64,000 bases of DNA, taken from assembly GCF_024223415.1 (NCBI RefSeq), contig NZ_CP100503.1. One strand, 5' to 3'. The notes under the pieces are model-generated. The model did not search any database. It saw nothing but the letters and a program-made list of their open reading frames with translations, and had not been told where the DNA came from. The DNA comes from Escherichia coli (GTDB lineage Bacteria; Pseudomonadota; Gammaproteobacteria; Enterobacterales; Enterobacteriaceae). The translations under genes were made by a program, and so were the position numbers. Positions 11,556 through 64,000 of this stretch are shown here, piece by piece (positions within the stretch are counted from its first letter, which is position 1; every line of letters begins with the position of its first letter).

Positions 11556-14500
11556 CTATATTTTTCCGCCTACGCCTTTAAACTTCTCAATAAACGAGAC
11601 GATTTTCTGGAAAACTGCCTGTTTTTTCGTTTTATATTGCGGATTCAACGGACTAAGTTTTGGTAATGTTTCGTTTAATTCTGTGCCATTTTCGGTGGCG
11701 TATTCGCGTTTTAAAGACGTGCGAATATAGCGTTTTGCTGCTTCTTCATTGAGATTTTCTTCTTTTATCAATGCTTCTGCTTCACGTTGCTGTTCGCGTT
11801 GAGCAAATGTAAAGAATGCCTCAATGATACTGGCTTTGTCTGGTAAATCATCCAGGTTCGTTTGCTGAATAAAATCGACCACCAGGCCCTCTTTCGCCCG
11901 GTTTCCCAGGCTTGAACGAATTAAGCGTTTGACCTCTTCGATCATTTCGCCCTTGCCTTTATTTTGTCTGTTGTGTTCGAAAATCAGTCCAAGGATATAA
12001 TCCAGGTTTATTTCCTGAGACTTCAGCAAATCGACCTCAAAAACTACGTCATCCCAGTCAGTGGTTGATTTCTCTTTTTTCTCAGCTTCTTTCTCACGGC
12101 GCTGCCAGTCGCGAATATCGTTATAGGCAGAACGATAATCCTGAATCTTGCGATCAGCAGGGAGACGAATTGTTTGCAATTCAGCGAACTTTTCATCATC
12201 CACATAATGTTCTGCTTTGAATTTTTCTACCGCAACAGGATCGCTAAGATCGATTTGTTGCAGGGCTTTTAGCGTGGCAAATTCATCATAGTTTTGCAGG
12301 ATGTTCTCGGCACGCAGGTATTCGCCAAACAGTTTAACGAAGTCTTTCTTCTCTTTTTCACTTTCAATACTGGTAGGGTCAGGGAACCGTTGTTCCAGTT
12401 CTGAAACTACTGTCATGAAGCCGCGTTTAGCTTCACCAGTGGCAGCATCAGTAAAGCCTTCCATATACTCTGCATAACTCTTTTCTAAAACCACATTTTT
12501 GGTATTTTTGTCACCAAACAGCGTTATGGCATCAATGGTTGAGCGTTCCAGATCCCGGAACGTGACGATATTACCGAAGGTTTTAGTCGCGTCATAAATG
12601 CGGTTGGTGCGGGAGAATGCTTGCATCAGGCCGTGAAAACGCAAGTTTTTATCGACGAATAGCGTGTTCAATGTTGGAGCGTCGAATCCGGTTAAAAACA
12701 TCCCAACGACAATTAACAGATCGATATCCTGATTTTTAACCCGTTGGGCTAAATCACGATAGTAGTTCTGAAAACCGTTACTGTCGGTACTGAAGTTAGT
12801 TTTAAAATAGCTGTTATATTCACGAATTGCAGCGTCGAGAAACTCTTTAGCACTGCTGTCCATTGCGCTGGTATCAAAAGTTTCATCGGAAATTTCACCA
12901 ATAGCATTTTGTTCTTCATTAGCGGCAAAGGAGAAGATTGTCGCAACACGTAGTGGTTTATAGGTAGCAGATTTATTAGCGGCTTCCTCTTGTAACCGTT
13001 TAAACGTCGCGTAATAGGCTTTCGCGGCATCCACGCTGCTCACTGCCAGCATGGCATTAAAACCTTTGGAGCCAGGGAAAGTACGGTGGGTTTTCTGGCG
13101 GAAGTTATTCAGGATATATTGCGTAATTTCCTGAATACGCATGGGATGAAGGAACGCCTGCTGATTTTCAGCCGCACTCAGTTTTTTCTCGTCAGTTTCT
13201 GTCTCTAAAGACTTAAACTGTGGCCGCACATCGTTGTAGTCCACCTTGAATTTAAGCACTTTTTCATCACGAATCGCATCGGTAATTACATACGAATGCA
13301 ATTCACGACCAAATACGCTGGCGGTTGTTTCTGAGCCTAAGGCGTTTTCCGGGAAAATAGGGGTGCCGGTAAAACCAAACTGATAATAGCGTTTGAATTT
13401 CTTCTTCAGGTTTTTCTGCGCTTCTCCAAACTGGCTGCGGTGGCATTCATCAAATATAAACACCACTTGCTGATTATATACAGGCAGGTCGCTTTCTGCT
13501 TTCATCAGGTTATTGAGTTTCTGAATAGTAGTGACGATAATTTTGTTATCGTCCTTATCCAGATTTCGTTTAAGGCCTGCGGTATTTTCCGAGCCGTTGA
13601 CGCTGTCTGGCGAAAAACGCTGATATTCCTTCATGGTCTGGTAATCGAGGTCTTTCCTGTCGACCACAAAGAAGACTTTATCAATAAAGTCCAGCTCTGT
13701 TGCCAGACGCGCGGCTTTAAAGCTGGTGAGGGTTTTACCAGAACCGGTAGTGTGCCAGATATACCCACCGCTTTCCGGTTTTGACCAGTTCTTCGCTGTA
13801 AAGGAACTCTTAATTTTCCACAGAATGCGCTCGGTGGCGGCAATCTGGTACGGTCGCATCACCAGTAGCGTCTGACTACTGTCAAAAACGCTGTAGTTCA
13901 CCAGAACATTCAGCAGAGTATGTTTCTGGAAAAAGGTAGCGGTAAAGTCTTTGAGGTCTTTAATCAGCGTGTTGTCTGATTTCGCCCAATTCATGGTGAA
14001 GTCAAAACTGTTTTTATCGCGCTTTGTCGTGTTGGCAAAATAACGGGTATCGGTGCCGTTAGAAATGACAAACAGTTGCAGATACTTAAACAGGGAATTT
14101 TCGCTGTTAAAACTCTCTTTACTGTAACGATGTATCTGGTTGAAAGCCTCACGAATCGCCACCCCGCGTTTTTTTAGTTCGATTTGCACCAGCGGTAAAC
14201 CATTAACCAGGATCGTGACGTCATAACGGTTAGCATGAGAACCCGTCTGTTCAAACTGCTGGATAATCTGCACCTTATTGCGCATGAGATTCTTTTTATC
14301 TATCAAATAGATGTTCTCAAGACGCCCGTCATCAAAAATAAAGTCGCAAATATAGTCGATATGGATATTACGGGTCTTATCCAGAATGCCATCACTCGGG
14401 TTGTCCAGATACTGCTCCGTGAAACGCCGCCACTCGCTGTCATTAAATACCACACCATTGAGGCTCTGAAGCTGTTCCCGAACATTGGACAGCATCGCCA

Positions 14501-14672
14501 ACTGTGATTTTACCGAAATAAATTCATAGCCCTGATTCCGCAGGTCCTGAATCAGTTCCCGTTCCAGGTCCGATTCGCTCTGGTAGCTGTCGCCTGTTTG
14601 CTCAGCTTTGATGTACTTATCAAGGACGATAAAGTTATTGGATTCAGCAATGGTGTGTATCTGATGAGTCAT
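11556..14672 (-). CDS. hsdR: Type I restriction endonuclease subunit R (EcoR124-like, type IC)
   Basis: 1038 aa; Walker A TTGSGKT, DECH box, N-terminal nuclease region; matches my recollection of EcoR124 HsdR. Confidence 0.9.
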
Positions 14673-14793
14673 AGCGCATCCTTTGTCCCGCCTGGCAAGG
14701 GCCGGAAGGGCGTTAAGAGTGACTTCCGGCGCGTAAAAAATAGTCTATATACAGACCGGGTGTTAAGGTGGCCCGGTCGGTAGCAATGGTCAA

Positions 14794-16028
<1,235 letters not shown>

Positions 16029-16032
<4 letters not shown>

Positions 16033-17591
16033 TTCTGCACCTCGCAGCCTTCAATTTCAGCCACAATCGCATCAATATCTTTACGCAATTGGTCGATTTT
16101 GCTGACCGTGGTTTTCAGCTCTGCATTCAACTCAGCGATATCGATAATTTCGCGAGTATCTTTCGCTTCCACATAGCTGCTCACCGACAGGTTATAGTCA
16201 TTAGCTACAACGGTCTCAAACGCGACAGATTTTGCCAGATGAGCAACATCTTCCTTGCTGGTGAATACCTGCATAATTTGTTCGATATGGGCATCGGTCA
16301 GGATATTGTTGTTGGTCTCTTTTTTGAACAGTTCGCTGGCATCAATAAACTGAACGTTGGTATCCGTTTTATGTTTGGACAGAACCAGAATGTTTACGGC
16401 AATGGTGGTGCCAAAGAACAGGTTCGGTGCCAGTGAAATCACGGTTTCGACATAGTTATTGTCAACCAGATACTGACGGATTTTCTGCTCCGCGCCGCCA
16501 CGGTAAAAAATGCCCGGGAAGCAGACAATCGCAGCACGACCTTTGGCAGAAAGATAGTTCAGCGCATGTAATACAAACGCAAAGTCAGCTTTGGATTTGG
16601 GGGCCAGAACGCCAGCCGGGGCAAAACGCTCATCGTTAATCAGCGTCGGGTCATCGCTGCCAATCCATTTCACCGAATACGGCGGGTTAGAAACGATGGC
16701 ATCAAACGGTTTTTCATCTCTGAAGTGCGGTTCAGTCAGCGTATTGCCCAGCTTGATATCAAACTTGTCGTAGTTGATGTTGTGCAAAAACATGTTCATA
16801 CGTGCCAGGTTATAGGTCGTATGGTTGATTTCCTGTCCGAAAAAGCCTTCTTCAATGATATGGTTATCAAACTGCTTTTTAGCCTGCAACAACAGCGAAC
16901 CGGAACCTGCTGCCGGGTCGTAGATTTTGTTAACGTGGGTCTGCCCGTGCATAGCCAGTTGTGCAATCAGCTTAGAGACGTGCTGTGGTGTAAAGAACTC
17001 GCCGCCTGACTTACCGGCATTCGCGGCATAGTTAGAAATCAGAAACTCATAGGCATCGCCAAACAGGTCAATCTGATGTTCGTTAAAGTCGCCAAGCTTT
17101 AATCCTTCAACCCCTTTCAGAACCGCAGCCAGGCGGGCATTTTTATCCTTAACGGTGTTACCCAGGCGGTTACTGGTGGTATCGAAATCAGCAAACAAAC
17201 CTTTGATGTCTGCTTCTGAAGGATAACCGTAAGCAGAACTTTCGATAGCAACGAAGATGCTGTTTAAATCTGCATTCAGTCTGTCATTAGTATTTGCTTT
17301 CGCAGCTACGTTGCAGAAAAGCTGACTTGGGTAGATGAAGTAGCCTTTGGTTTTGATGGCATCGTCTTTAATGTCATCAGTAATTACGCTGTCATCCAGT
17401 TTCGCATAACAGATACTGTCATCACCGGCTTCAATATAGCTGGAAAAATTTTCGCTGATAAAACGGTAGAAAAGTGCGCCCAGAACGTATTGCTTAAAAT
17501 CCCATCCATCGACCGAACCCCTGACATCGTTAGCAATTTGCCAGATTTGACGATGAAGCTCTGCGCGTTGTTGAATACTTGTCATTTTCAT
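16029..17591 (-). CDS. hsdM: Type I R-M N6-adenine methyltransferase subunit M
   Basis: 520 aa; NPPY motif ([10 protein letters not shown]) and AdoMet-binding motif. Confidence 0.9.
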
Positions 17592-38900: not shown

Positions 38901-40863
38901 CGTACTCCGGCAGGAAACGATAGGTGATCCTGCGATAGTACAGGTCCATGTCAGTACATACGCGGTCCATATCCCTGATTATTGAGAAGATCGGACGGGC
39001 TTTCTCGTGCTCAATCACGCCGTCTTCATTGACCGAGGTCGTTACGCCATTGTTGGCTTTGGCTGCCGCTTCCGCCTGCTGACGCAATTCTTCATACGCC
39101 GCCAGTTGTTCTTCCGTAAGTGGTGCATCCTGCTGGTGTTCGTCCAGTTCCGGGATCTCCACGGTATCCTTAACGTCTTCCGCCGTTTTAAGCGTTGTCC
39201 AGCGATGGAATATGCCGCGCAGCGCATCAAGGTTTTCAAAGCCCACCAGCGCCATTTTTTCTTCAACTTCACCGCTAATTTTCTGTACCGTTTCCAGCCT
39301 GGTCTTGCCGAAGAATTTAACGAAGTCATCAGGACCGTAGATCCCCATCTTCTGCCAGTATTCCTTCGGCAGCACATGAGAAAGCATGTTGTATGCATCG
39401 ATCGGGGTGTTAACGACTGGCGTTGCAGTCAGGAGAACCGGTCCGCGCCCACCATTCTTTTTCATCAGGTACGCGTTTTTAATTGCCATATCCCGCGCCG
39501 ATTGCGCCACCGCGCTGGTGGGCAGATAGGCCAGTTGTGACGCTTCGCGACCATTTTTATAGCTATTGCGGTAGTTGTGACCTTCGTCAGCGATCACACT
39601 ATCGAAGCCCATATCCTCAAAGTACGGATACTTCTCTGCTTTTTCGGTGCCGGTATCTGAATACTCCGACAATACCCGGCGACGCGCGGCCTCTTTGCGG
39701 TGGGAGTCGGAGTCCATTGCGCTGGCTACGCGCCCGGCGGCAACGAAGTCATAAAGCATATCCTGTGCATGCTCATCTACGGTGTCATCACGTAGCGGAA
39801 TGCGGGCGTATTGTTCTTTGGTAAACACGACTGCACGGTAATTTGAGTGCGGGATCGCGTTCATCCGCGCCGTGATAGTGGCTTCATCTGCCAGCTTAAG
39901 AGCATCGCGCATAACTGGAGTGCCATCAGTACCAAGAACAGGTTTACCGTTCTCATTGAGCACCGGCACCTGGCGAATCTGATCGCCATCCATCAGCACA
40001 TCAAGACCGACGAACAGGTAGTTACTGAATGCCTCTTCACTCAGGAACTCTTTTGCTTCGTAATACCAGTTTTCCAGCACTGATTTAGGCACTACATACG
40101 CAGTACGGGTGGAACGACCGTTCTCATAGTTGAACGCCTCAAGCGCCAGCGCGGTCGTGGTTTTACCCAGCCCGGTACCGAAGCCCAGGATGCCGCGCCC
40201 ATCTTCGGACAGTCGGCGCACCTCGCTATTCTGGTAATCAAATGGCTGTCGCTTACCGCTTAATCCCTTCAACCCAAGCGGATCGCCAGAGTGTTCATAC
40301 GGGATATTGCTATTGAACACATCGTTGTATTTGGCAACCAGCTCATCGTAGCGATCGTGCGTCTTGATCCACTTATTGAACTGGTCCTCAAGCAGTGCCA
40401 TCTGCTCGCGGTAGCCGTTCGCCGTCGCGCTATCTTTGCCACCGATACGCGCACCATTGAGATACTTTTCCAGCTGTGCCGGGAACCCGGTCGCGTTTTC
40501 ACCTGATTTACGGTCCCACTCGTAGCGGATCTCGCCTGTTTCTTTATCCTTGCGCTGGACGACACCGTATCGGTGCCCGACGAACAGACCATCACCACCG
40601 TGATAGGTGTCAGAAACCATTTCGTCGCCTTCCAGCTGCACTGACTGCACATAGCGAAGATCCGGATAGCCGTTTTCCTGCAAAAATTCCAGAATGACGG
40701 AACGGTCGAACCAACGGCTATTGAGCTTAAAGCGGATATTCTCTGCTGGCGTCTTGATGCGCTTCTCTTCGATCGCTGCCAGCTGATTAAGGACGTTGTT
40801 CTTTACCCAGTGCGCCGTAAAGCCCCGTCCTTCAGGTCGGGGATATAAGGCGCGGTTTTCCAC
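35974..40863 (-). CDS. Large SF2 helicase-domain protein, 5'-truncated by IS insertion (DarB-like anti-restriction candidate)
   Basis: 1629 codons; Walker A GFGTGLGKTT, DEGH box, TATP, QRNGRGARVGS; first 19 codons (40807-40863) are IS left-end sequence, host-derived part starts at 40806. Confidence 0.5.
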   Translation of the reverse strand: MENRALYPRPEGRGFTAHWVKNNVLNQLAAIEEKRIKTPAENIRFKLNSRWFDRSVILEFLQENGYPDLRYVQSVQLEGDEMVSDTYHGGDGLFVGHRYGVVQRKDKETGEIRYEWDRKSGENATGFPAQLEKYLNGARIGGKDSATANGYREQMALLEDQFNKWIKTHDRYDELVAKYNDVFNSNIPYEHSGDPLGLKGLSGKRQPFDYQNSEVRRLSEDGRGILGFGTGLGKTTTALALEAFNYENGRSTRTAYVVPKSVLENWYYEAKEFLSEEAFSNYLFVGLDVLMDGDQIRQVPVLNENGKPVLGTDGTPVMRDALKLADEATITARMNAIPHSNYRAVVFTKEQYARIPLRDDTVDEHAQDMLYDFVAAGRVASAMDSDSHRKEAARRRVLSEYSDTGTEKAEKYPYFEDMGFDSVIADEGHNYRNSYKNGREASQLAYLPTSAVAQSARDMAIKNAYLMKKNGGRGPVLLTATPVVNTPIDAYNMLSHVLPKEYWQKMGIYGPDDFVKFFGKTRLETVQKISGEVEEKMALVGFENLDALRGIFHRWTTLKTAEDVKDTVEIPELDEHQQDAPLTEEQLAAYEELRQQAEAAAKANNGVTTSVNEDGVIEHEKARPIFSIIRDMDRVCTDMDLYYRRITYRFLPEYADAVQQLADSLPKQATSEDDDSDDSITQQSQYSLIDKGEFIQLQVPEAFEQEVNKRLARFGIDEQTVTHPVTPKYAKLIATLKEFFPEGKQIIFTDEKTQHQKLKRIICNALNLEPSKVGILNAQTVAEAGKTGKKLKAVKPPKELPDEPTDAQIAKYNEQMALYDAYIAQQNEMSLGGLEKIAADFQEGRTPIIICNKKAEVGINLHRGTTDIHHLTLPWTPASIAQRNGRGARVGSNRASVRVHYYCGKGSFDEYRLKTLKRKAGWISDILRSDKSEMENADANDMIEMQMYTAKDDGERLAMMQVQMDKAKAAQRARQKEQATIDLQNYIKAQHAAGEDVEVLTAELERSKAELEKTTAEVAKFKQAVMAKAADNADWKARWGSVHHTDRMLLAQYRASLKNAIQRKANISQAISRYEKLLNRTQKAATDIKRLRPLVEDAINKGILDVDPDLVNHASEFLVIGDRSWRVGQYYDCAGDIVRIKSLDFDSQRADVEIIFTFKGTKSGNWDVKTLDKQVDVTPDEDAVMQKISGGVSIAGINDIISCDDFYRFQQRGMIKITDSYGVQTTESGYSIDFVGTYTDPLKHAVYPDRRDGALKSSIAKWVLGMMSEGNNRQIRSAETFLVELFGSNYGDVIASYGDTLSPEAIQEKIADAIARMPEKTSQGATRNGDSELEVTNAIFGTNEFRASDYEITTAQFGTIGIYSNKAEIKQAMDAASARIAAERKANLNHAVAALTQSWVTAIREAATTGKITPAIADVVNDGSKFMDAYQMDAVKLPSAYGQLSYRMTYNLVSMFSDLAILGLVDLNEVTPELLSMRKNHVEILQRINTVLAGRTDEEKQADADRINLALGNITEEEIAARNEKQEELSSIQGDATSIAQSLGLNYRVSTADLKMMYAPKFAAGEVFGLQEASGMKGVLFRAKDAIKAKFGARWLPAKAKNSDFPGNWWIIETKHNVADVLAVIQQYA

Positions 40864-41280
40864 CTAACCAGGTGTTTGCTGTTGTTCAATGTATTGGCGG
40901 ATGATGGATATTGGTGCGCCACCGCAGCTACTGGCAAAATAGCTGGGACTCCATAAAACGCCTTTGTAGTAATATCGGGCTGCAATATCTGGTCGATCTC
41001 GTCGCAATAATCTACTCGATACGCCCTTGAGACTGTTCACCAGGCTGGATATCGCCAATTTGGGGGGATAGTTAATTAGCAGGTGAACGTGATCTCGTTC
41101 TCCATCCATTTCAACCAGTTCAGCTTCAAAATCAGCACATACACTTGAAAAGTAAGTGCGTAGTTTTTCTATTGCGTCATGGTCAAAAATCTGACGTCGG
41201 TATTTTGCGACAAAGACCAGGTGAACGTGCATCAGGAAGACGCAGTGTCTTCCACGTCGGATATCAGTTTCTTTTTTTAT
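40864..41280 (-). pseudogene. tnpA: IS200-type transposase tnpA with start codon changed to ATA
   Basis: Copy 3 has ATG at the equivalent position (63558-63560); copy 2 has ATA at 41278-41280; ORF track only finds a TTG-initiated 178-aa extension. Confidence 0.5.
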
Positions 41281-42511
41281 GGACCAAAGTATAATTTGGC
41301 TTATGAAACGACTACAAGCTTTCAAATTCCAGTTAAGACCAAATGGACAGCAGGAGCGTGAAATGAGGCGCTTCGCGGGCGCATGTCGTTTCGTTTTCAA
41401 TCGTGCTCTGGCGCTTCAGAATGAGAATCATGAGGCCGGGAACAAATATATTTCTTATGCAAAGATGACTTCCTGGCTGGTTGAATGGAAAAATGCTACT
41501 GAAACGCAATGGCTTAAAGATTCTCCCTCACAGCCATTGCAGCAGTCACTGAAAGACCTTGAGCGAGCCTACAAAAATTTCTTTCAGAAGCGTGCCTCTT
41601 TTCCCCGCTTCAAAAAGCGGGGACAGAATGATGCATTCCGCTATCCGCAGGGCGTTAAGCTCGACCAAGGGAACGGTCGTATTTTTCTGCCAAAACTTGG
41701 CTGGATGCACTACCGGAACAGCCGTCAGGTCTCGGGGATTGTGAAAAACGTCACTGTCAGCCAGTCCTGCGGTAAGTGGTACATCAGTATTCAGACAGAA
41801 AGTGAAGTATCAACTCCGGTTCACCCTTCAGCATCAATAGTCGGTCTGGATGCAGGCGTGGCTAAACTCGCCACGCTGTCAGATGGCACAGTCTTTGAGC
41901 CTGTAAACAGTTTTCAGAAAAACCAGAAGACGCTGGCGAGACTTCAGCGACAGTTAAGCCGCAAGGTCAAATTCAGCAACAACTGGCAGAAGCAGAAATG
42001 CAAAATACAGCGACTGCATTCCCGTATCGCAAATATCCGCAGGGACTACCTTCACAAAGTCACAACGACCGTCAGCAAAAACCACGCCATGATAGTCATT
42101 GAGGATTTGAAGGTCAGTAACATGTCAAAGTCAGCAGCGGGTACGGTCAGCCAGCCGGGGCGCAATGTCCGGGCAAAATCAGGTTTAAACCGTTCGATAC
42201 TGGATCAGGGCTGGTATGAAATGCGCCGTCAGCTTGAGTACAAGCAGCTCTGGCGAGGCGGTCAGGTGCTTGCGGTTCCGCCAGCGTACACAAGCCAGCG
42301 TTGCGCGTGCTGTGGTCATACAGCGAAAGAAAACCGCCTGTCACAAAGTCAATTCAGATGCCAGGTATGTGGATATACAGCGAACGCCGATGTAAACGGC
42401 GCTCGTAACATTTTAGCGGCGGGGCACGCCGTTCTTGCCTGTGGAGGGATGGTGCAGTCAGGCCGCCCGTTGAAGCAGGAACCCACCGAAATGATTCAGG
42501 CGACAGCCTGA
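41279..42511 (+). CDS. tnpB: TnpB
   Basis: 410 aa; C-terminal 230 aa nearly identical to tnpB at 28201-29433, N-terminal half divergent. Confidence 0.85.
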
Positions 42512-42592
42512 ACGTAGCAGGAATCCACGTCCTTCAGGGCGTGGAGGATGTCAATGGAGCCTCCCCTTCTCTGCCGACGTTCAGGGGGGTTT

Positions 42593-55746: not shown

Positions 55747-56631
55747 TTATGGATTACGCTTATGGATCTGGAAGCCGATTTTCCTGCCGTTTTTTATCTC
55801 TGAAAATTTAAGATATTCAATAGCTTCCAAATCTTTCATGGCTTTTCTGATAACGCTATTTTGCACGCTAACGGATGATTTGAGATTAAGCCTTGCTCTA
55901 AGGCGCTCAATGCTGACAGGTGCCGGGTTGGCGGGTAGAGCCTCAAAGAATGTATACAGTACCTTGGCCGTCTCTTTGCGCCCGAGCTTATCCAGCATCT
56001 TCAGCTTCAGGATTCGCTTATAGTCAACATAGTAAAGTTCAGATAGCTGTTTCTGCGGCTGGATCTCGATAACATCAAGCTCGGTATTCAGGCTGCTATA
56101 TGCCAACAAGTTGACGTTAATGTTATTGAGATGACCTTTTGCCGCCGGGAAGCGGAATTTGACAACTGTCTGCTGAATGCGTGTCAGAGAGTCATCAATA
56201 CTTTTACGGAACGCCTTTGAAAGGCGCTTACGTGGATAGCCGCATCGATCGGCAAACTCGGAGAATGGCAGGGTGATTATGCCGTCATCATCAGGTGCGT
56301 AGTCAAACAACGCGGAGGTTATGCCCACCCACACCTTAAAATCAGTATCCATATCCAGGCGTGGACCATGAATTTCAATTCCCTCATAGCCTTCCTGCTC
56401 AACAATTTTGAGGCTTGATAGTTCTTCGGTTGCGTTCGTTGTGTTTGTAGTAACTGACGATCCGCGACGTAGTGCCACATTGGTAGATTTTAAGGTTGGC
56501 ACAAACACACCTAAGCGCAACAAAGCGATGGGTTGTATAGTGCTATTGTTATTGGGTTTCAGGCTGTGGATTTCTCCTGTATTTCCTGCAACTTCTTCAA
56601 CGCTAAGGAAGCCTTTATTTTCTTCCGGCAT
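55747..56631 (-). CDS. repA: Plasmid replication initiator RepA
   Basis: Flanked by iteron arrays; start set at MPEENKG (294 aa), ORF track extends to a TTG at 56688. Confidence 0.75.
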   Translation of the reverse strand: MPEENKGFLSVEEVAGNTGEIHSLKPNNNSTIQPIALLRLGVFVPTLKSTNVALRRGSSVTTNTTNATEELSSLKIVEQEGYEGIEIHGPRLDMDTDFKVWVGITSALFDYAPDDDGIITLPFSEFADRCGYPRKRLSKAFRKSIDDSLTRIQQTVVKFRFPAAKGHLNNINVNLLAYSSLNTELDVIEIQPQKQLSELYYVDYKRILKLKMLDKLGRKETAKVLYTFFEALPANPAPVSIERLRARLNLKSSVSVQNSVIRKAMKDLEAIEYLKFSEIKNGRKIGFQIHKRNP

Positions 56632-56693
56632 CGTGGTTTCTCCATATGTGGCGCGGCCTGGCGTCATCTGGATTGCAGTTATCAACAACTGTG

Positions 56694-56811
56694 AATAGTC
56701 AGGCTCTAAAATCGCGTACAGTCAATGTTTCTGTCGCGTATAGTCAACAATAAATCGCGTGCAGTCAACAATAAATCGTGCACAGTCAACATAAAATCGC
56801 GTATAGTCAAT
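56694..56811 (-). repeat. oriR: oriR iteron array upstream of repA
   Basis: Five direct repeats of TCGCGTATAGTCAAC-like units at about 21-bp spacing. Confidence 0.7.
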
Positions 56812-56964
56812 GTTAATCCCATTTCAGGCCAGAAATGGCGCGGCTTACAGCGATCCGGGATCTTCTTTGGATCTTCCTGGGTTCTCTTTAGGATCTGTTT
56901 ATTGGATCTATGCTGTGGATAAGTTGAATAAACCGGCCAACATAGCCGGTTGGAAGGAAGGGTA

Positions 56965-57357
56965 TTATTCTACGCTTTCGATAAGAAGACCATGTTCATA
57001 ACATTTAAGCTCATCGCCTTCGTACAGGAATTGGTATCCAATACCACCATTTTCATGGACATTAGGGAATAACTCATAACTCACTGAAGAGCAAATCACA
57101 CCAATGCAACGATCAACGCCTTCTCGTTCTTCAGTGCTGAAAAAATCCTCTTCGGTAAGAACATGAGTACATTGCTCATCAGCATAGGTCGGAAATACAT
57201 GCTCGATGCAATCCGGGTGTTTTAAACCAAGCTGATCGGCAAGCTCGAAAGCATGACGGTATTGTTCAGATCCTGGCTTGCCAACAGTGATGTGCTCAAT
57301 TTTGTAGATTGAAGTCGCTTTGTTGATAGTTTGCTTTACTGTTACTTTATCAGACAT
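56965..57357 (-). CDS. Hypothetical protein (upfA position)
   Basis: 130 aa ORF upstream of oriR. Confidence 0.4.
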   Translation of the reverse strand: MSDKVTVKQTINKATSIYKIEHITVGKPGSEQYRHAFELADQLGLKHPDCIEHVFPTYADEQCTHVLTEEDFFSTEEREGVDRCIGVICSSVSYELFPNVHENGGIGYQFLYEGDELKCYEHGLLIESVE

Positions 57358-57368
57358 AAAAATCCCTT

Positions 57369-57701
57369 TTAGTTACCGCTGATAGCGCGGTTGTAATCAT
57401 TAACGTTGCGATTCTTCCTGTTAATCCCCTTCAGCATCGTTTCTGTATCAAGGATATAGGCTGGCAGATCATCAAAATATTCACTGCTAAATTCTGGCAT
57501 CCTGCACATAAATGCACTTTTGGGGGCAGGGTGGTTAACCTTTGTCGGCGTCGGCGTTAAATTCGCTGATCGACTCCCGGAGCAACCGCTGAGTGTCAGC
57601 AGGAATACGCTGGCGAACATTACCCGCCGCAACCAGTTGTTTCTGAACTTCAGCTTTTCGTTCCATTTGCCTGTCAGCATACTTGGCTTGTTCTGATTCA
57701 T
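57369..57701 (-). CDS. Putative membrane lipoprotein (mlp position)
   Basis: Lipobox LTLSGC; true start probably internal, so the gene is shorter than the ORF. Confidence 0.45.
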   Translation of the reverse strand: MNQNKPSMLTGKWNEKLKFRNNWLRRVMFASVFLLTLSGCSGSRSANLTPTPTKVNHPAPKSAFMCRMPEFSSEYFDDLPAYILDTETMLKGINRKNRNVNDYNRAISGN

Positions 57702-57957
57702 TTTTCACTTCCTGGCTGTGAAAATGTTGCTCTGCTTTGTTCATCGTCTCAATGGCCTGGTTAAGATCCATTATTGACTTATCACGTTCCTTAACAGCCT
57801 GATCAAGACTGCCAATTTTCTCCATGGCTTGCTTTAGCTGATGACGTTCCCATGCAAACCCAGCACCAACAAGTGCGCAAATCAGAACAAGAACACCAGT
57901 AGCAGCAAGTTTCTCCTTCAAAGACAAAGCTGTTTTTAACGTAGAAAAGAATGACAT
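57535..57957 (-). CDS. Membrane-anchored coiled-coil protein (ppfA position)
   Basis: Start at MSFFST with AGGAGG RBS; N-terminal TM segment. Confidence 0.4.
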   Translation of the reverse strand: MSFFSTLKTALSLKEKLAATGVLVLICALVGAGFAWERHQLKQAMEKIGSLDQAVKERDKSIMDLNQAIETMNKAEQHFHSQEVKNESEQAKYADRQMERKAEVQKQLVAAGNVRQRIPADTQRLLRESISEFNADADKG

Positions 57958-57996
57958 GTCTTCCTCCTGAAGAAAAATTATCAATGAAGTCCTTTG

Positions 57997-58842
57997 TTAC
58001 TGTGCCGCTTTGTTTAATTCATCAAGAACAGAATCAGGAACCAAAGCGGCAACTGCGCTGGCTGTGCTGGCCTTATTTGCTGATGCTTCCGCAAGCGCGG
58101 TACCGATAGCATGGTTATAAGCAGTTATGGCTACGTTGGCGCTTTCATTCGCTCGTTCATACTGCTGTTGTAACGCAGTTGTGGGCGCTGTTGTCTGGTT
58201 GAAAACAACCCCAAACTGTTCAGTTGCTACTTTCAGAGATTCAATTTGCTCTTCTGTTAGTGCTGGTGGGGGAATGGCAGTGCCGCCGCCTGAACCAGAG
58301 CCTGACGAGCTTCCTGAACCAGTGTTAAGGGTCTGGTTAATCTCCCCCATAGCAGCGACTAAACTTGATGTATTAAGCGCGTTAACAGCGTCCTCAAGCG
58401 ATTTAGTAATATTCACATCACCAATGGCAATAGAGATCAGCAGTTCTGAAACTTCTCGCTCATTAGCACGGCAGTAAACATCCCAACCAATATCGAGTTG
58501 AAGCAGCATTGACAGATCTGCATAACCAGCCAACAGGTCCGCGTGCTTAGTTGCCAGTTCTCCAATGTTCGTTAAGCCGGTTGTGGTTGTTCTGATCGTT
58601 GAAACATAGCTGGTAATAGTGTCGGGATAGACAATTGTATCCAGAATTAATCCGGTCAATTCTTCTGCAAGCTGTTTTGCCGTGTTAGCACTGTTTCGTG
58701 CCGATGTTATGGCACCAGGTGTTTTCATCCCACCGGCAGCGGCCAATTTTTTATATGCGGATAACTGGTAGTCTTTTTCCAGCATGATATCTCCTAACTT
58801 ACCTGAACCAGGCCGTCTCCTGACGCTACGGTAGAGCCGCAT
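57997..58842 (-). CDS. Hypothetical protein with Gly/Ser-rich linker
   Basis: 281 aa ORF; start may be internal (MLEKDY at 58785). Confidence 0.35.
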   Translation of the reverse strand: MRLYRSVRRRPGSGKLGDIMLEKDYQLSAYKKLAAAGGMKTPGAITSARNSANTAKQLAEELTGLILDTIVYPDTITSYVSTIRTTTTGLTNIGELATKHADLLAGYADLSMLLQLDIGWDVYCRANEREVSELLISIAIGDVNITKSLEDAVNALNTSSLVAAMGEINQTLNTGSGSSSGSGSGGGTAIPPPALTEEQIESLKVATEQFGVVFNQTTAPTTALQQQYERANESANVAITAYNHAIGTALAEASANKASTASAVAALVPDSVLDELNKAAQ

Positions 58843-59078
58843 GAAACAGGGTCACCAACGCATACGACCCCTTTACCATTGACGGTAAACCATGCCCTGG
58901 TTGATATAGCTTGCCCACCGTGCGTACTGTTTCCATCGGTATGCTGTGCATATTGCTTACCATCAACTAACACTTCGACTCCGTTGACTTTAAGTAGTGG
59001 TTCACTCTCTACAGGAGGCCTGGATGGGAATCCTCCGTGCCCCGAACAAATGCTGTCTTTTGTTGCAATACTTGCCAC
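58794..59078 (-). CDS. Small Cys/Gly-rich protein, possible PAAR-like spike tip
   Basis: 94 aa; VNGxxVxVxGD...CG pattern; weak assignment. Confidence 0.3.
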   Translation of the reverse strand: MASIATKDSICSGHGGFPSRPPVESEPLLKVNGVEVLVDGKQYAQHTDGNSTHGGQAISTRAWFTVNGKGVVCVGDPVSCGSTVASGDGLVQVS

Positions 59079-59158
59079 GTCATCACCAATTATTTGCTCT
59101 GGTTTTTGTTATTTTAACTTAGGTTACTTGTGGTCTAAATGGCGTTAACTATTGCATA

Positions 59159-59175
59159 ATTGCTCTAATAAATAT
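59159..59175 (+). promoter_or_regulatory. C1 operator upstream of uhr-hrdC-dmt
   Basis: ATTGCTCTAATAAATAT. Confidence 0.65.
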
Positions 59176-59531
59176 TGTTTTTTATGTCGTGTTTTCGGTA
59201 CCATTCAGCCATCGCCCTTCAATGGGCATTTGTTTGGAGTCGTCAGATGCAGATGGAGCTAATAAGCCGCAAGGAGTTCGATAGCCGTGTAACCAGCGGT
59301 GAACTCGACAACTTGCAGGCTATCAAGGTGAAAGAAGGCTTTTGCCTCATTGGGAATCAGAGCGGAACAAATCGCGTTTTTATGCTTCGCCGTACGGATT
59401 TGAAGCCATTTGTCTGGAAGAACGAAATTGGTCCCAGCTCATACGCTCAAACGAGGGGGTGCCACAACCTGGCCTTTTTCTACAAAGACGAGCTTTCTGT
59501 GGTTGATATTCAAGGGTTACAACATGTTTAA
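59175..59531 (+). CDS. uhr: Hypothetical protein upstream of hrdC
   Basis: ORF overlapping hrdC start by 8 bp; start may be internal. Confidence 0.4.
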
Positions 59532-60429
59532 GCACTGGAAAAACATTACTATTTATAAACTTTCTCGTGAGGCGGATCTGACCGACTTAGAAGATAAAAA
59601 GAAAATGATCCTTTTCACGCCATGCGGTAGTCAGGATATGGCCAAGTTCGGTTTTGTATCTCCATTTGGTGATAATTCCGAAGTTATCGCTATGCATGGA
59701 AATGGTTTTATCCTTGTTGAAGCAAAGCGCGAAACAAAAATTCTTCCCCCGCCGGTTATCCAGCGAGCTATTCAAGAAAAAATTGAAAAACTTGAGCAAG
59801 AACAAGCGCGTAAACTGAAGAAAACAGAGAAGGACTCCCTGAAAGACGAAGTTCTGCATTCTCTTCTGCCACGGGCTTTTTCAAAGTTTTCTGTTATCCA
59901 GGCGATCTACGACGGTTCAACTAAACGTATCTATATCAATGCCAGCACGCGGCAGGCAGAGGATATGCTCGCGCTTATGCGTAAGTCTCTGGGTTCTCTT
60001 CCTGTTGTTCCCCTGAGTGTTGAAAATCCCATTGAATTAACGCTGACCGACTGGGTACGTGATGGTAGTGCTCCACAGGGATTTCAAATGGGGGATGCGG
60101 CAGAACTTAAGGCAGTGCTTGAGGATGGCGGTATTGCCCGAGTGAAAAAGCAGGATTTGGGAAGCGATGAAATTTCCACACACCTGGAAGCTGGCAAGCT
60201 CGTCACTAAGTTGGCACTCGACTGGCAGAACCGCATTAAATTTACACTGGACCATAACTTCAGCCTTACCAGCGTCAAATTTGCGGATGAATTGCTTGAG
60301 CAGAACTCTGATATTGATAGTGAAGATGTAGCGCAGCGACTGGACGCAGATTTCTTCCTGTTGACCAGTGAAATTTCGTGCCTGGTTGATGCTCTGGTAA
60401 ATGCCCTTGGTGGAGAGGCTAAGCAGTGA
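59524..60429 (+). CDS. hrdC: RdgC-homologous recombination-associated protein
   Basis: Start at MFKHWKNIT; strong similarity to E. coli RdgC as I recall it ([11 protein letters not shown]..., [13 protein letters not shown]). Confidence 0.8.
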
Positions 60430-63128
60430 AAGAGCTGTGCTATGGATCTGTTTGCAGTGGAATTGAAGCCGCGAGTATTGCCTGGGAACCGTTGGGTATG
60501 CGTCCGGCGTGGTTTGCTGAAATCGAGCCTTTTCCATCAGCCGTTCTTGCGCACCGCTGGCCCCATGTCGCCAACCTTGGCGACATGACAAAACTTGCCA
60601 AAAAAGTCCTGGCTGGGGAAATCGAATCCCCTGATGTGCTGGTGGGAGGGACACCATGTTTTACCGCGGGCCATATGGTTCTTTGTAAAAATGGTTATAA
60701 ACCAATAGAAGATGTTTGCCCTGGCGATTACGTAGTCAGTCATCTCGGGCGGTTACAACAAGTAAAAAAAGTTGGTTCAAAAATAGCTAATACGGGGTTA
60801 CTTAATGCCGTTGGGCAGCCTTTAGGTATAAGAACAACCAACGACCATCCCTTCCTGGCGGTTCGGTGGAAAGCCCAAAACACCCGGAAAAATGGCACAT
60901 ATTTTAAGAGAGAGTTGTTGTCTGAACCGGAATGGCGAGCAGCATGTGATATGCCGGGATATCAATGGTGTGCTCTAACTAATTTCAATATTGCATCTCC
61001 AGATATTTGTTCTCGGTTCTTGTCTGAAGAACAGGCTATGTATCTTGCGGGCGCTTATGTTGGCGATGGATATATTAGGAGATGGAGAGGTAAATCTAAG
61101 AAGGCGGTTGTTTTTGGCATAAATTGCCAGAAATTGAGAAAGTTTCATTGCCGCATATCAGAAAACATATTTTCCGTGGCAAGCGAAATCCGAGGGAGCA
61201 TCAAAGTAACCTTGAATGATACGTGTTATGCCAATTGGCTTAATGAACATTTTGGCGAGTTAAGCCATGCTAAGCGTATCCCTGCATGGGTGATGTCGCA
61301 TCCATTGCGTCATGTGTTTTTACAAGGCTATCTTGATACTGATGGGACACCAAGTGGTAAAGCGGGATTTAGAATTAATAGTGTTAGTCCTGCGCTTGCT
61401 TGGGGCGTTGCGGAGTTGTCACAGACTTGTGGTTATGTTTCTTCGGTCAGCTTTATTGAAGTTGAGCCCAAAAAAGTGATTGAGGATCGCGTGGTAAATC
61501 AACGGAATTATTATCAGGTAACAATCTGCCCGCAGAAATTGTCACGTAAATCAAGATTGGCTCATGGAATGCTTTTACGAACAGTCAAAGAGTTTAAATC
61601 GGTAGGCCTAGATACTGTATACAACATAGAAGTCGAAGGTGATCATTCCTATATCCTCAATGGTGCGGTGGTCCATAACTGTCAGGCATTCAGTATCGCT
61701 GGATTACGTGGCGGGCTTGATGATGAGCGTGGCGCGCTAACTTTAAAGTATGTGGAGCTTGCAAATGCAATTGACGACAAACGGGCTGAGTCATTTCTCA
61801 AACCAGCCGTTATCGTCTGGGAAAATGTCCCAGGAGTCTTGTCATCGGCAGATAACGCCTTCGGATGTTTCCTTGCCGGATTGGCTGGAGAAGATGTGCC
61901 ATTTGAACCAGGTGATCGACCTGAATCAGGAAAAAGCAACGCGTTCTGGCGGTGGGATGGCAAAACCGGTTGCCATGTTCCAAAGTGGCCGCAGTGTGGT
62001 TGTATTTATGGACCGCAGCGAAAGGTGGCCTGGAGAATCCTTGATGCCCAATACTTCGGAGTGGCACAACGACGCCGACGCGTGTTTGTTGTCGCAAGTG
62101 CTCGAACAGACCTCGATCCCGCAACGGTACTTTTTGAGTTCGAAGGCGTGCGCCGGAATATTGCGCCGAGCCGAAAAAAGAAGGAAATCGCTTCCGCCAT
62201 TACTGCAAATGGCGCTGCAATCAGTGGCGAAAGCCTAAATCCATGCCTACACGCTGGCATGTCCCCCGGTATGAAATCGACGAAAGCCGTAAACGCTTTC
62301 AGGATGGCAGCATTTGGGGAATATATTGACGATGAAACCGCATCGACAGTAAAGGCAAGAGATTTTAAAGATGCCACTGACCTTGCCGTTTTTAGCAGCA
62401 CAGGAGCAGGTTTTTGGTCAGAAGGGCATGGTACATTGCGGGCACGTGAGCAAGAAAGCCATGAGCATCTTGTTACATTGGCTTTTCCTGAGCGTATGAG
62501 CGGTACACAACATGCTGCAACTAAGAATACTTCACCATCTCTAATGGCTAAAAATCCAACAGCTGTTTGCTATGAAGTAAGAAACGCAGAAGTAGCTGTC
62601 CGCCGTCTTACCCCTGTCGAATGTGAAAGGCTGCAAGGTTTTCCTGATGGGCATACGTTGATCCCGACGGAAAAGCGTAAAAAAGTTAATTCAGATGAAC
62701 TGGCATATCTTCGCAATCACTATCCAGATTTAAGCGAAGAAGAGGCCGCGATGCTTGCAGCTGACGGACCGCGTTACAAAGCGATCGGCAATAGTATGGC
62801 AATACCAGTAATGCGCTGGATTGGCGATCGGATTACTAAGGCCGTATGTCGGCAGAAAGAAGGAAGTGAAACAAAAGAGCGAAAAGTTAAACCAGCGGCA
62901 GAATTCGAACGGTCCATATTCAAATGGGCTGGTGGAAAATTTGGTGTTCTGGAACAAATCTTTCGCTATTTGCCAGAAGGGAAGCGCCTGATTGAACCTT
63001 TTGTCGGTGGCGGAGCTGTCTTCACGAATGCCGGATACCAGGAAAATCTGCTAAATGATGTGAATGCTGACCTGATTAACTTTTACCCAGTGCGCCGTAA
63101 AGCCCCGTCCTTCAGGTCGGGGATATAA
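60426..63128 (+). CDS. dmt: Bifunctional DNA methyltransferase Dmt (C5-cytosine MTase domain with intein, Dam-like domain), 3'-interrupted by IS
   Basis: Motif [14 protein letters not shown] split by intein; ENV, QRRRVF motifs; Dam-like FKWAGGKF...[10 protein letters not shown]...DLINFY; last 14 codons are IS-derived from 63087. Confidence 0.8.
60657..61679 (+). other. Intein (341 aa) with LAGLIDADG homing endonuclease domain
   Basis: Begins Cys (CFTAGH...), block [17 protein letters not shown] motifs [12 protein letters not shown] and [11 protein letters not shown], ends ...[21 protein letters not shown] followed by +1 Cys. Confidence 0.85.
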
Positions 63129-63143
63129 GGCGCGGTTTTCCAC

Positions 63144-63560
63144 CTAACCAGGTGTTTGCTGTTGTTCAATGTATTGGCGGATGATGGATATTGGTGCGCC
63201 ACCGCAGCTACTGGCAAAATAGCTGGGACTCCATAAAACGCCTTTGTAGTAATATCGGGCTGCAATATCTGGTCGATCTCGTCGCAATAATCTACTCGAT
63301 ACGCCCTTGAGACTGTTCACCAGGCTGGATATCGCCAATTTGGGGGGATAGTTAATTAGCAGGTGAACGTGATCTCGTTCTCCATCCATTTCAACCAGTT
63401 CAGCTTCAAAATCAGCACATACACTTGAAAAGTAAGTGCGTAGTTTTTCTATTGCGTCATGGTCAAAAATCTGACGTCGGTATTTTGCGACAAAGACCAG
63501 GTGAACGTGCATCAGGAAGACGCAGTGTCTTCCACGTCGGATATCAGTTTCTTTTTTCAT
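63144..63560 (-). CDS. tnpA: IS200-type Y1 transposase TnpA (intact ATG start)
   Basis: 139 aa from ATG at 63558-63560 (MKKETDIRRGRHCVFLMHVHLVF...); HuH motif DHVHLLI. Confidence 0.8.
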   Translation of the reverse strand: MKKETDIRRGRHCVFLMHVHLVFVAKYRRQIFDHDAIEKLRTYFSSVCADFEAELVEMDGERDHVHLLINYPPKLAISSLVNSLKGVSSRLLRRDRPDIAARYYYKGVLWSPSYFASSCGGAPISIIRQYIEQQQTPG

Positions 63561-64000
63561 GGACCAAAGTATAATTTGGCTTATGAAACGACTACAAGCT
63601 TTCAAATTCCAGTTAAGACCAAATGGACAGCAGGAGCGTGAAATGAGGCGCTTCGCGGGCGCATGTCGTTTCGTTTTCAATCGTGCTCTGGCGCTTCAGA
63701 ATGAGAATCATGAGGCCGGGAACAAATATATTTCTTATGCAAAGATGACTTCCTGGCTGGTTGAATGGAAAAATGCTACTGAAACGCAATGGCTTAAAGA
63801 TTCTCCCTCACAGCCATTGCAGCAGTCACTGAAAGACCTTGAGCGAGCCTACAAAAATTTCTTTCAGAAGCGTGCCTCTTTTCCCCGCTTCAAAAAGCGG
63901 GGACAGAATGATGCATTCCGCTATCCGCAGGGCGTTAAGCTCGACCAAGGGAACGGTCGTATTTTTCTGCCAAAACTTGGCTGGATGCACTACCGGAACA
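63559..64000 (+). CDS. tnpB: TnpB (5' part, continues beyond window)
   Basis: Same sequence as tnpB at 41279; divergent from tnpA with overlapping CATG starts. Confidence 0.8.
   Translation, partial: MDQSIIWLMKRLQAFKFQLRPNGQQEREMRRFAGACRFVFNRALALQNENHEAGNKYISYAKMTSWLVEWKNATETQWLKDSPSQPLQQSLKDLERAYKNFFQKRASFPRFKKRGQNDAFRYPQGVKLDQGNGRIFLPKLGWMHYRN

Follow-up and report, generated by a model that had tools for sequence, protein, structure and literature searches.

The DNA considered here is a window of 64,000 nucleotides from Escherichia coli (contig NZ_CP100503.1 of assembly GCF_024223415.1). A locus near its right end raises two questions: whether a small protein reminiscent of PAAR cones belongs to a virion, and why its gene lies close to replication genes. 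The original prediction, made from the sequence alone, named the product as a possible PAAR-like spike-tip protein encoded far from the baseplate genes.

The upfC gene and its product

The open reading frame lies on the minus strand (58794-59078) and encodes a protein of 94 amino acids, MASIATKDSICSGHGGFPSRPPVESEPLLKVNGVEVLVDGKQYAQHTDGNSTHGGQAISTRAWFTVNGKGVVCVGDPVSCGSTVASGDGLVQVS. Its GTG start codon at 59078, preceded by GGTGA, is the first start codon after the in-frame stop, and the frame ends with a TAG codon at 58796-58794. The product contains 14 glycines (14.9%), 14 valines, 3 cysteines (3.2%) and 3 histidines. Its earlier description as Cys/Gly-rich is thus right for glycine and wrong for cysteine (3 of 94 residues), and the protein is better called Gly/Val-rich, its few Cys and His residues being key ones. 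The motifs that had suggested a PAAR protein, KVNGVEVLVDGK and TVNGKGVVCVGDPVSCG, are both present. Two plus-strand frames that overlie the gene, at 58879-59148 (89 aa) and 58997-59122 (41 aa), are regarded as shadow ORFs, upfC being well supported.

By megablast, positions 56500-60500 are 96-99% identical to the DNA of P1-like phages (P1, P7, RCS47, vB_EcoM-Ro157c2YLVW, and SJ46), and the P1 reference carries upfC (P1_gp066) under this match. There the gene bears the RefSeq label “PAAR motif,” with the remark that its product is 31% identical to T4 ORF 5.4. The protein matches chain A (“UpfC”) of PDB 9vyi, a cryo-EM structure of the P1 baseplate, at 92 of 94 positions (E 2.5e-60), and the two substitutions, V71 for I and S86 for A, are both conservative. 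Near-identity of sequence together with a conserved P1 gene order makes the gene an orthologue of P1 upfC; it is the upfC of a P1-like phage-plasmid, and as such is already known and already characterized.

Much had been learned about this protein beforehand. Gonzales et al. (2022) matched UpfC to gp5.4 by HHpred, found that deletion of upfC left plaquing unaffected, and missed the protein in LC-MS/MS of P1 virions, which they explained by its presence in one copy per virion (PMC9024508). A CRISPRi screen scored both upfC and upfB as non-essential (PMC10695390), and no phenotype has been reported for the upfC deletion (PMC9024508, PMC10695390); on standard laboratory hosts, plaques form without the gene. 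In two cryo-EM studies UpfC sits at the tip of the needle (bioRxiv 2025.07.21.665459; PLoS Pathog 2026, PMC12810830). In one of them a UpfC monomer was built on trimeric gp5 at 3.2-3.7 Å, and UpfB was recognized as a novel “tripod” of three trimers anchored at the spike tip (PMC12810830); in the other, spike and tip are AlphaFold models put in the map without refinement (bioRxiv 2025.07.21.665459). The pair gp5.4/UpfC is the only pair of tail proteins from T4 and P1 that BLAST can detect (T4 gp5.4 preprint).

PAAR fold and metal site

As a single query, UpfC matches PHROG 281 (“PAAR motif”) with E 2.2e-30. Against the Pfam model PAAR_motif the sequence alone reaches E 7.4e-6 and 26.5 bits, which is 0.5 bit short of the gathering score of 27, and most of its homologues carry a precomputed PF05488 match. 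Searched singly against the chains of the PDB, UpfC finds T4 gp5.4 (E 6.5e-8) and the Vibrio type VI secretion system (T6SS) PAAR protein VCA0105 (E 2.9e-4). A family profile of 24 homologues, drawn from 73 matches, sharpens these relationships to 9.4e-17 for gp5.4, 5.3e-13 for VCA0105 and 6.2e-9 for c1882, and extends to Tre23, an Rhs effector, through its PAAR domain (E 2.9e-3). By sequence profile, UpfC therefore belongs to the PAAR-repeat superfamily (PF05488). Absence of a profile match to PAAR domains was to have counted against the original prediction; such matches are present.

The predicted structure points the same way. An AlphaFold2 model computed from the alignment of 24 homologues consists entirely of β strands (pLDDT 96.7, pTM 0.86), and in Foldseek it superimposes on 9vyi (TM 0.97), 9f4b_BA (0.93), 4ku0_D (0.92), 4jiv_D (0.88), and 4jiw_D (0.87). 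Significant scores were obtained for PAAR cones only, the next matches outside the family falling below TM 0.4. The model thus predicts a compact, conical, all-β fold with pseudo-threefold symmetry, and the cone takes up the whole 94 residues, leaving neither an N- or C-terminal extension nor an effector domain.

Four residues, H14, H46, H53, and C80, are invariant in all 24 homologues, down to 39% identity, and align with the three histidines and one cysteine of gp5.4 and VCA0105. In T4 gp5.4 these ligands coordinate Fe tetrahedrally, and binding to the spike is lost in the H14A mutant (PMC12407873). From its sequence, UpfC is accordingly predicted to bind a metal near the apex, held tetrahedrally by three His and one Cys. 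Its resemblance to PAAR proteins is far above chance, and the suggestion of a PAAR-like spike-tip protein is borne out by the PHROG and profile matches, by a predicted fold like that of solved PAAR cones, and by the modeling of a 98%-identical protein as the tip of the gp5 spike (PDB 9vyi, PMC12810830).

Genomic setting of upfC

The genes at 714-2355 are the spike and the hub, that is, the direct partners of UpfC. Gene 5 (714-1346, minus strand) is recognized by its match to phrog_430 (E 1.7e-51), by its size and by neighbors like those of P1 gene 5. It encodes the trimeric central spike, with an OB fold and a β-helix, no lysozyme domain, and UpfC on its blunt end (PMC12810830, PMC9024508). 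The label of phrog_430 is “baseplate hub subunit and tail lysozyme,” and the match of the product to Phage_base_V is weak. Gene 6 (1339-2355, minus strand; phrog_1390, E 1.7e-159, and P1 annotation) encodes the trimeric baseplate hub that carries the gp5 spike (PMC12810830), and genes 24, 7, 25, and 26 follow the two in the window. No HxH apex motif was found near the C-terminus of gp5, where it was looked for. This motif marks spikes with a built-in apex, which need no tip protein (PMC12407873), and a gp5 that lacks it fits the use of a separate one.

The distance between upfC and these genes might suggest displacement. In window coordinates it does amount to about 56 kb, but this gap is set by where the window begins on the P1-like map and is misleading: only 8.6 kb separates upfC (64779-65063) from gene 5 (73704-74336) on the map of reference P1, and the neighboring upfB itself encodes a baseplate component (PMC12810830). 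The description of the locus as replication-proximal is correct, with repA at 55747-56688. Downstream of upfC, on the same strand, come upfB, ppfA/mlp, upfA, and then repA with its iterons; on the other side lie the operator Odmt and the divergent uhr-hrdC(RdgC)-dmt operon.

The product of upfB (57997-58785, minus strand; phrog_1559, E 5e-136) is the “tripod” protein (PMC12810830). Its annotated start (ATG 58842, giving 281 aa and a 49-nt overlap with upfC) is probably 19 codons too early, because the phrog_1559 alignment begins at residue 20 of the long frame, the homologues in loci L006, L009, and L010 (258-264 aa) start at the equivalent of Met20, and a strong AGGAG stands 5 nt before ATG 58785, from which the protein would have 262 aa. 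As read from the sequence, this Shine-Dalgarno motif overlaps the TAG stop of upfC (58786-58796, minus strand), an overlap that suggests that the two genes are probably translationally coupled. Beyond upfB, ppfA (57535-57984, minus strand; phrog_89, E 3e-25) encodes an Rz-like inner-membrane spanin and mlp (57369-57701, minus strand; phrog_30284, E 9e-78) an Rz1-like lipoprotein, the outer-membrane spanin; both assignments agree with the P1 annotation. Since the two genes overlap and score as an Rz/Rz1-type spanin pair, the block beside the replicon reads as virion tip plus lysis, not as replication. The puzzle of a structural gene stranded among replication genes therefore does not hold: upfC-upfB-ppfA/mlp form a virion and lysis block by the replicon, the structural genes of P1 are scattered, and the spike tip has UpfB as a physical partner.

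The intergenic region between upfC and uhr aligns with that of P1 at 97%. It contains the C1 repressor operator Odmt (Op68; 59159-59175, plus strand), which is intact and identical to the annotated P1 operator. The RefSeq feature table of P1 annotates no late promoter upstream of upfC, and by eye the region agrees with the single annotated -22 box (LP26/LPpmgL) at 5 of 9 positions in either orientation. A sigma-70 scan around upfC gave six matches in the whole region, two of them weak, on the minus strand and intergenic; shuffled sequences gave 5.1 ± 2.4, so that there is no excess.

The upfC-upfB pair recurs beyond the close relatives of P1. Within the UpfC clade, three more lineages with 56-61% identity lie on P1-like contigs of 80-90 kb or on fragments. 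In all three a UpfB homologue (phrog_1559; 26% identical by BLASTP in L006) adjoins the PAAR gene or sits one gene off, and the pair is flanked by lysis and plasmid-maintenance genes. The order is PAAR, UpfB, Rz-like spanin in L006/L007 and L010, and PAAR, holin-like gene, UpfB in L009. A 226-aa gene upstream of the L006 PAAR gene was considered as a relocated gp5 spike and rejected, as it shows no similarity to it (E 6.1) and matches no PHROG. More distant homologues (41-43% identity), by contrast, follow a spike/baseplate-assembly gene in a P2-like module, with the order Phage_base_V, PAAR, gp25/J/I in L004 and a similar one in L008. Linkage to upfB in P1-like lineages, set against linkage to the spike gene in distant ones, suggests that in the P1 lineage the tip gene was uncoupled from the spike gene and tied to upfB. 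The conservation of the upfC-upfB pair and its adjacent lysis genes in diverged P1-like elements is a new, if minor, observation.

Elsewhere the window departs from reference P1 in several places. In the repA/oriR region (55747-56828) it has another allele than reference P1: with P1 and P7 the alignment starts only at 56828, whereas with RCS47, Ro157c2YLVW, and some records labeled “P1” it runs throughout, one of those records calling the protein “RepFIB replication protein A.” The pattern resembles an exchange of replicons among members of the P1-like group. The DNA methyltransferase gene dmt (60426-63128, plus strand) carries a 341-aa intein at 60657-61679 with Hint_2 and LAGLIDADG_3 domains; it runs from Cys1 to His-Asn, is followed by a +1 Cys, and is inserted exactly in motif IV (GGTP|CQAFS) of the C5-cytosine methylase half. 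The intein-bearing allele is also found in RCS47 and Ro157c2YLVW and is absent from reference P1. At 11556-17591 (minus strand), a stretch that P1 lacks, there are three large ORFs (1038, 412, and 520 aa). In the closest phage, vB_EcoM-673R5, HsdR2 and a restriction endonuclease subunit S are annotated at some point within its match to positions 40-25000, and we suspect a putative inserted type I restriction-modification system.

Two direct copies of an IS200/IS605 element (tnpA and tnpB) lie at 40802-42556 and 63082-64000 and are identical at 918 of the 919 nt visible in the second. The first abuts ant and leaves only the C-terminal 1629 aa of darB; the second breaks off dmt at codon 886 and continues past the end of the window. 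At the first copy the window lacks about 35 kb of the P1 map (~15.3-50 kb), including genes for the portal, protease, dar operon, tail fibers, tape measure, and tube initiator; prt, pro, sit, tub, sim, c4, and icd fall in this block. When the darB-IS-ant junction was searched in phages, plasmids, and complete E. coli genomes, no record spanned it, and the IS was found on its own.

Role in the virion and comparison with known systems

The reading that accounts for the locus as a whole is that UpfC is the single-domain PAAR-repeat tip of the gp5 spike in a P1-like phage-plasmid, to which we give a probability of about 0.95. The present analysis shows the reading frame, the identity of its product as UpfC, the PAAR fold, and the conservation of the ligands; the position on the spike comes from the published cryo-EM of the 98%-identical protein. 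One copy of UpfC would fold into a small β cone with internal pseudo-threefold symmetry, its apex held by the predicted tetrahedral site of H14, H46, H53, and C80. With its flat base the cone would bind the blunt C-terminal end of the trimeric β-helical gp5 spike (714-1346), itself seated on the gp6 hub (1339-2355), and UpfB would form trimeric “tripod” densities attached around the tip. In this way UpfC would sharpen the end of the tail tube and, on contraction of the sheath, be the first part to enter the host outer membrane, a piercing role that is suggested by analogy with T4 gp5.4.

The names under which homologues are filed suggest other functions. Many 94-aa homologues in NCBI (including P0007, P0009-P0011, P0014, P0028, P0037, P0040, and P0049), and the SJ46 gene, are called alanine racemase, as if they were fragments of that enzyme; we give this no credence, for no racemase family in Pfam or NCBIfam matches UpfC, and a 94-aa all-β cone cannot be a PLP-dependent TIM-barrel enzyme. 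That UpfC is a bacterial T6SS PAAR protein carried as a moron, sharpening a host VgrG or recruiting effectors, is very improbable. PHROG 281 does stand in the category “moron, auxiliary metabolic gene and host takeover,” homologues go by the name “Zn-binding protein involved in type VI secretion” at JGI, and the NCBIfam model T6SS_PAAR_dom matches with E 4.8e-9. Yet the score against this model (NF033420) is 36.2 bits, far under the equivalog cut-off of 124, which fits a phage protein rather than one of a secretion system; no T6SS genes lie nearby, the neighbors being phage and plasmid genes; the protein lacks an extension or effector domain; T4 gp5.4 is closer to it than any T6SS PAAR protein; and UpfC has been modeled in the baseplate of the P1 virion. 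For a protein of the virion's spike tip, both “alanine racemase” and “moron” look like annotation mistakes that have spread from record to record.

A different question is whether the gene is at work in this particular element. It might be intact and idle, carried along by a P1-like plasmid that is rearranged or defective and unable to make virions. The first IS copy (40802-42556), which truncates darB and abuts ant where P1 ~15.3 to 50 kb is missing from the window, speaks for this, as do the nearly identical second copy (918/919), which truncates dmt at 63082, and a darB-IS-ant junction that no record in the three collections shares. We nevertheless consider an idle gene unlikely, given that the upfC frame is unbroken and departs from P1 by no more than two conservative substitutions, that the genes of its partners gp5, gp6, and UpfB are also intact, and that the missing block could lie past the right end of the window, where the second IS copy runs off. 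Whether the element is defective or merely rearranged bears on the use of UpfC here and not on its identity as the spike tip.

For the spike-tip protein itself there is a tentative extension, which we regard as possible though somewhat doubtful: upfC and upfB may form a co-inherited cassette of spike tip and tripod, in the P1 lineage uncoupled from the spike gene and linked to lysis genes by the replicon, and perhaps conditionally essential in the manner of gp5.4, serving envelope penetration on some hosts only, for instance strains with truncated LPS or strains from outside the laboratory. T4 assembles without gp5.4, but its fitness and its ability to infect deep-rough LPS mutants require the protein (T4 gp5.4 preprint). 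Such a condition, if true, would explain why a gene so conserved, with 61% identity against the 26% to which UpfB has fallen, appears dispensable in the laboratory.

Beyond annotation the finding matters little, since the identity, fold, and virion position of UpfC are published and present in the PDB. It does correct a widespread misnaming of the family as “alanine racemase” and “moron,” and it turns an apparent misplacement of upfC into a conserved linkage to upfB, whose product is a partner that attaches at the tip of the spike. Conditional essentiality of upfC/upfB, if true, would bear on the host range of P1, a phage in wide use for transduction and a carrier of resistance genes.

Compared with P1 itself, the locus has the same flanks, with upfB, ppfA/mlp, upfA, and repA on one side and Odmt, uhr, hrdC, and dmt on the other, and the element differs in its repA/oriR allele, its intein-bearing dmt and its IS200/IS605 insertions. 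The nearest counterpart outside the P1 group is T4 gp5.4 (4ku0_D, 5iv5_ZA), likewise a single-domain cone of ~95 aa that sits as a monomer on a trimeric gp5 β-helix and has a site of three His and one Cys (TM 0.92, 27-31% identity, profile E 9.4e-17); both proteins are dispensable for plaques on standard hosts. However, gene 5.4 lies among the baseplate genes of T4 (its PDB name is “segC-Gp6 intergenic region”), whereas P1 upfC lies 8.6 kb from gene 5 and adjoins upfB. P1 gp5 lacks a lysozyme domain, and the UpfB tripod of P1 has no T4 counterpart (PMC12810830). A conditional requirement on deep-rough LPS hosts has been shown for gp5.4 alone.

The T6SS proteins VCA0105 (4jiv_D) and c1882 (4jiw_D) share with UpfC the fold (TM 0.87-0.88), the metal ligands, and attachment to a VgrG/gp5-like β-helix at its blunt end, but are only 14-22% identical, and UpfC is a component of a virion rather than of a secretion system. 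The literal motifs of VCA0105, GIPAARLGD and GKPAARVGD, correspond to GVEVLVDGK and GKGVVCVGD in UpfC; Pro-Ala-Ala-Arg is degenerate in gp5.4 too. Finally, the spike-adjacent PAAR genes of P2/Mu-like modules (e.g., L004) encode proteins of the same length (94 aa) with 41-43% identity and identical invariant residues. In contrast to upfC, they stand directly after a Phage_base_V spike/baseplate-assembly gene and before gp25/J/I, and have no UpfB partner.
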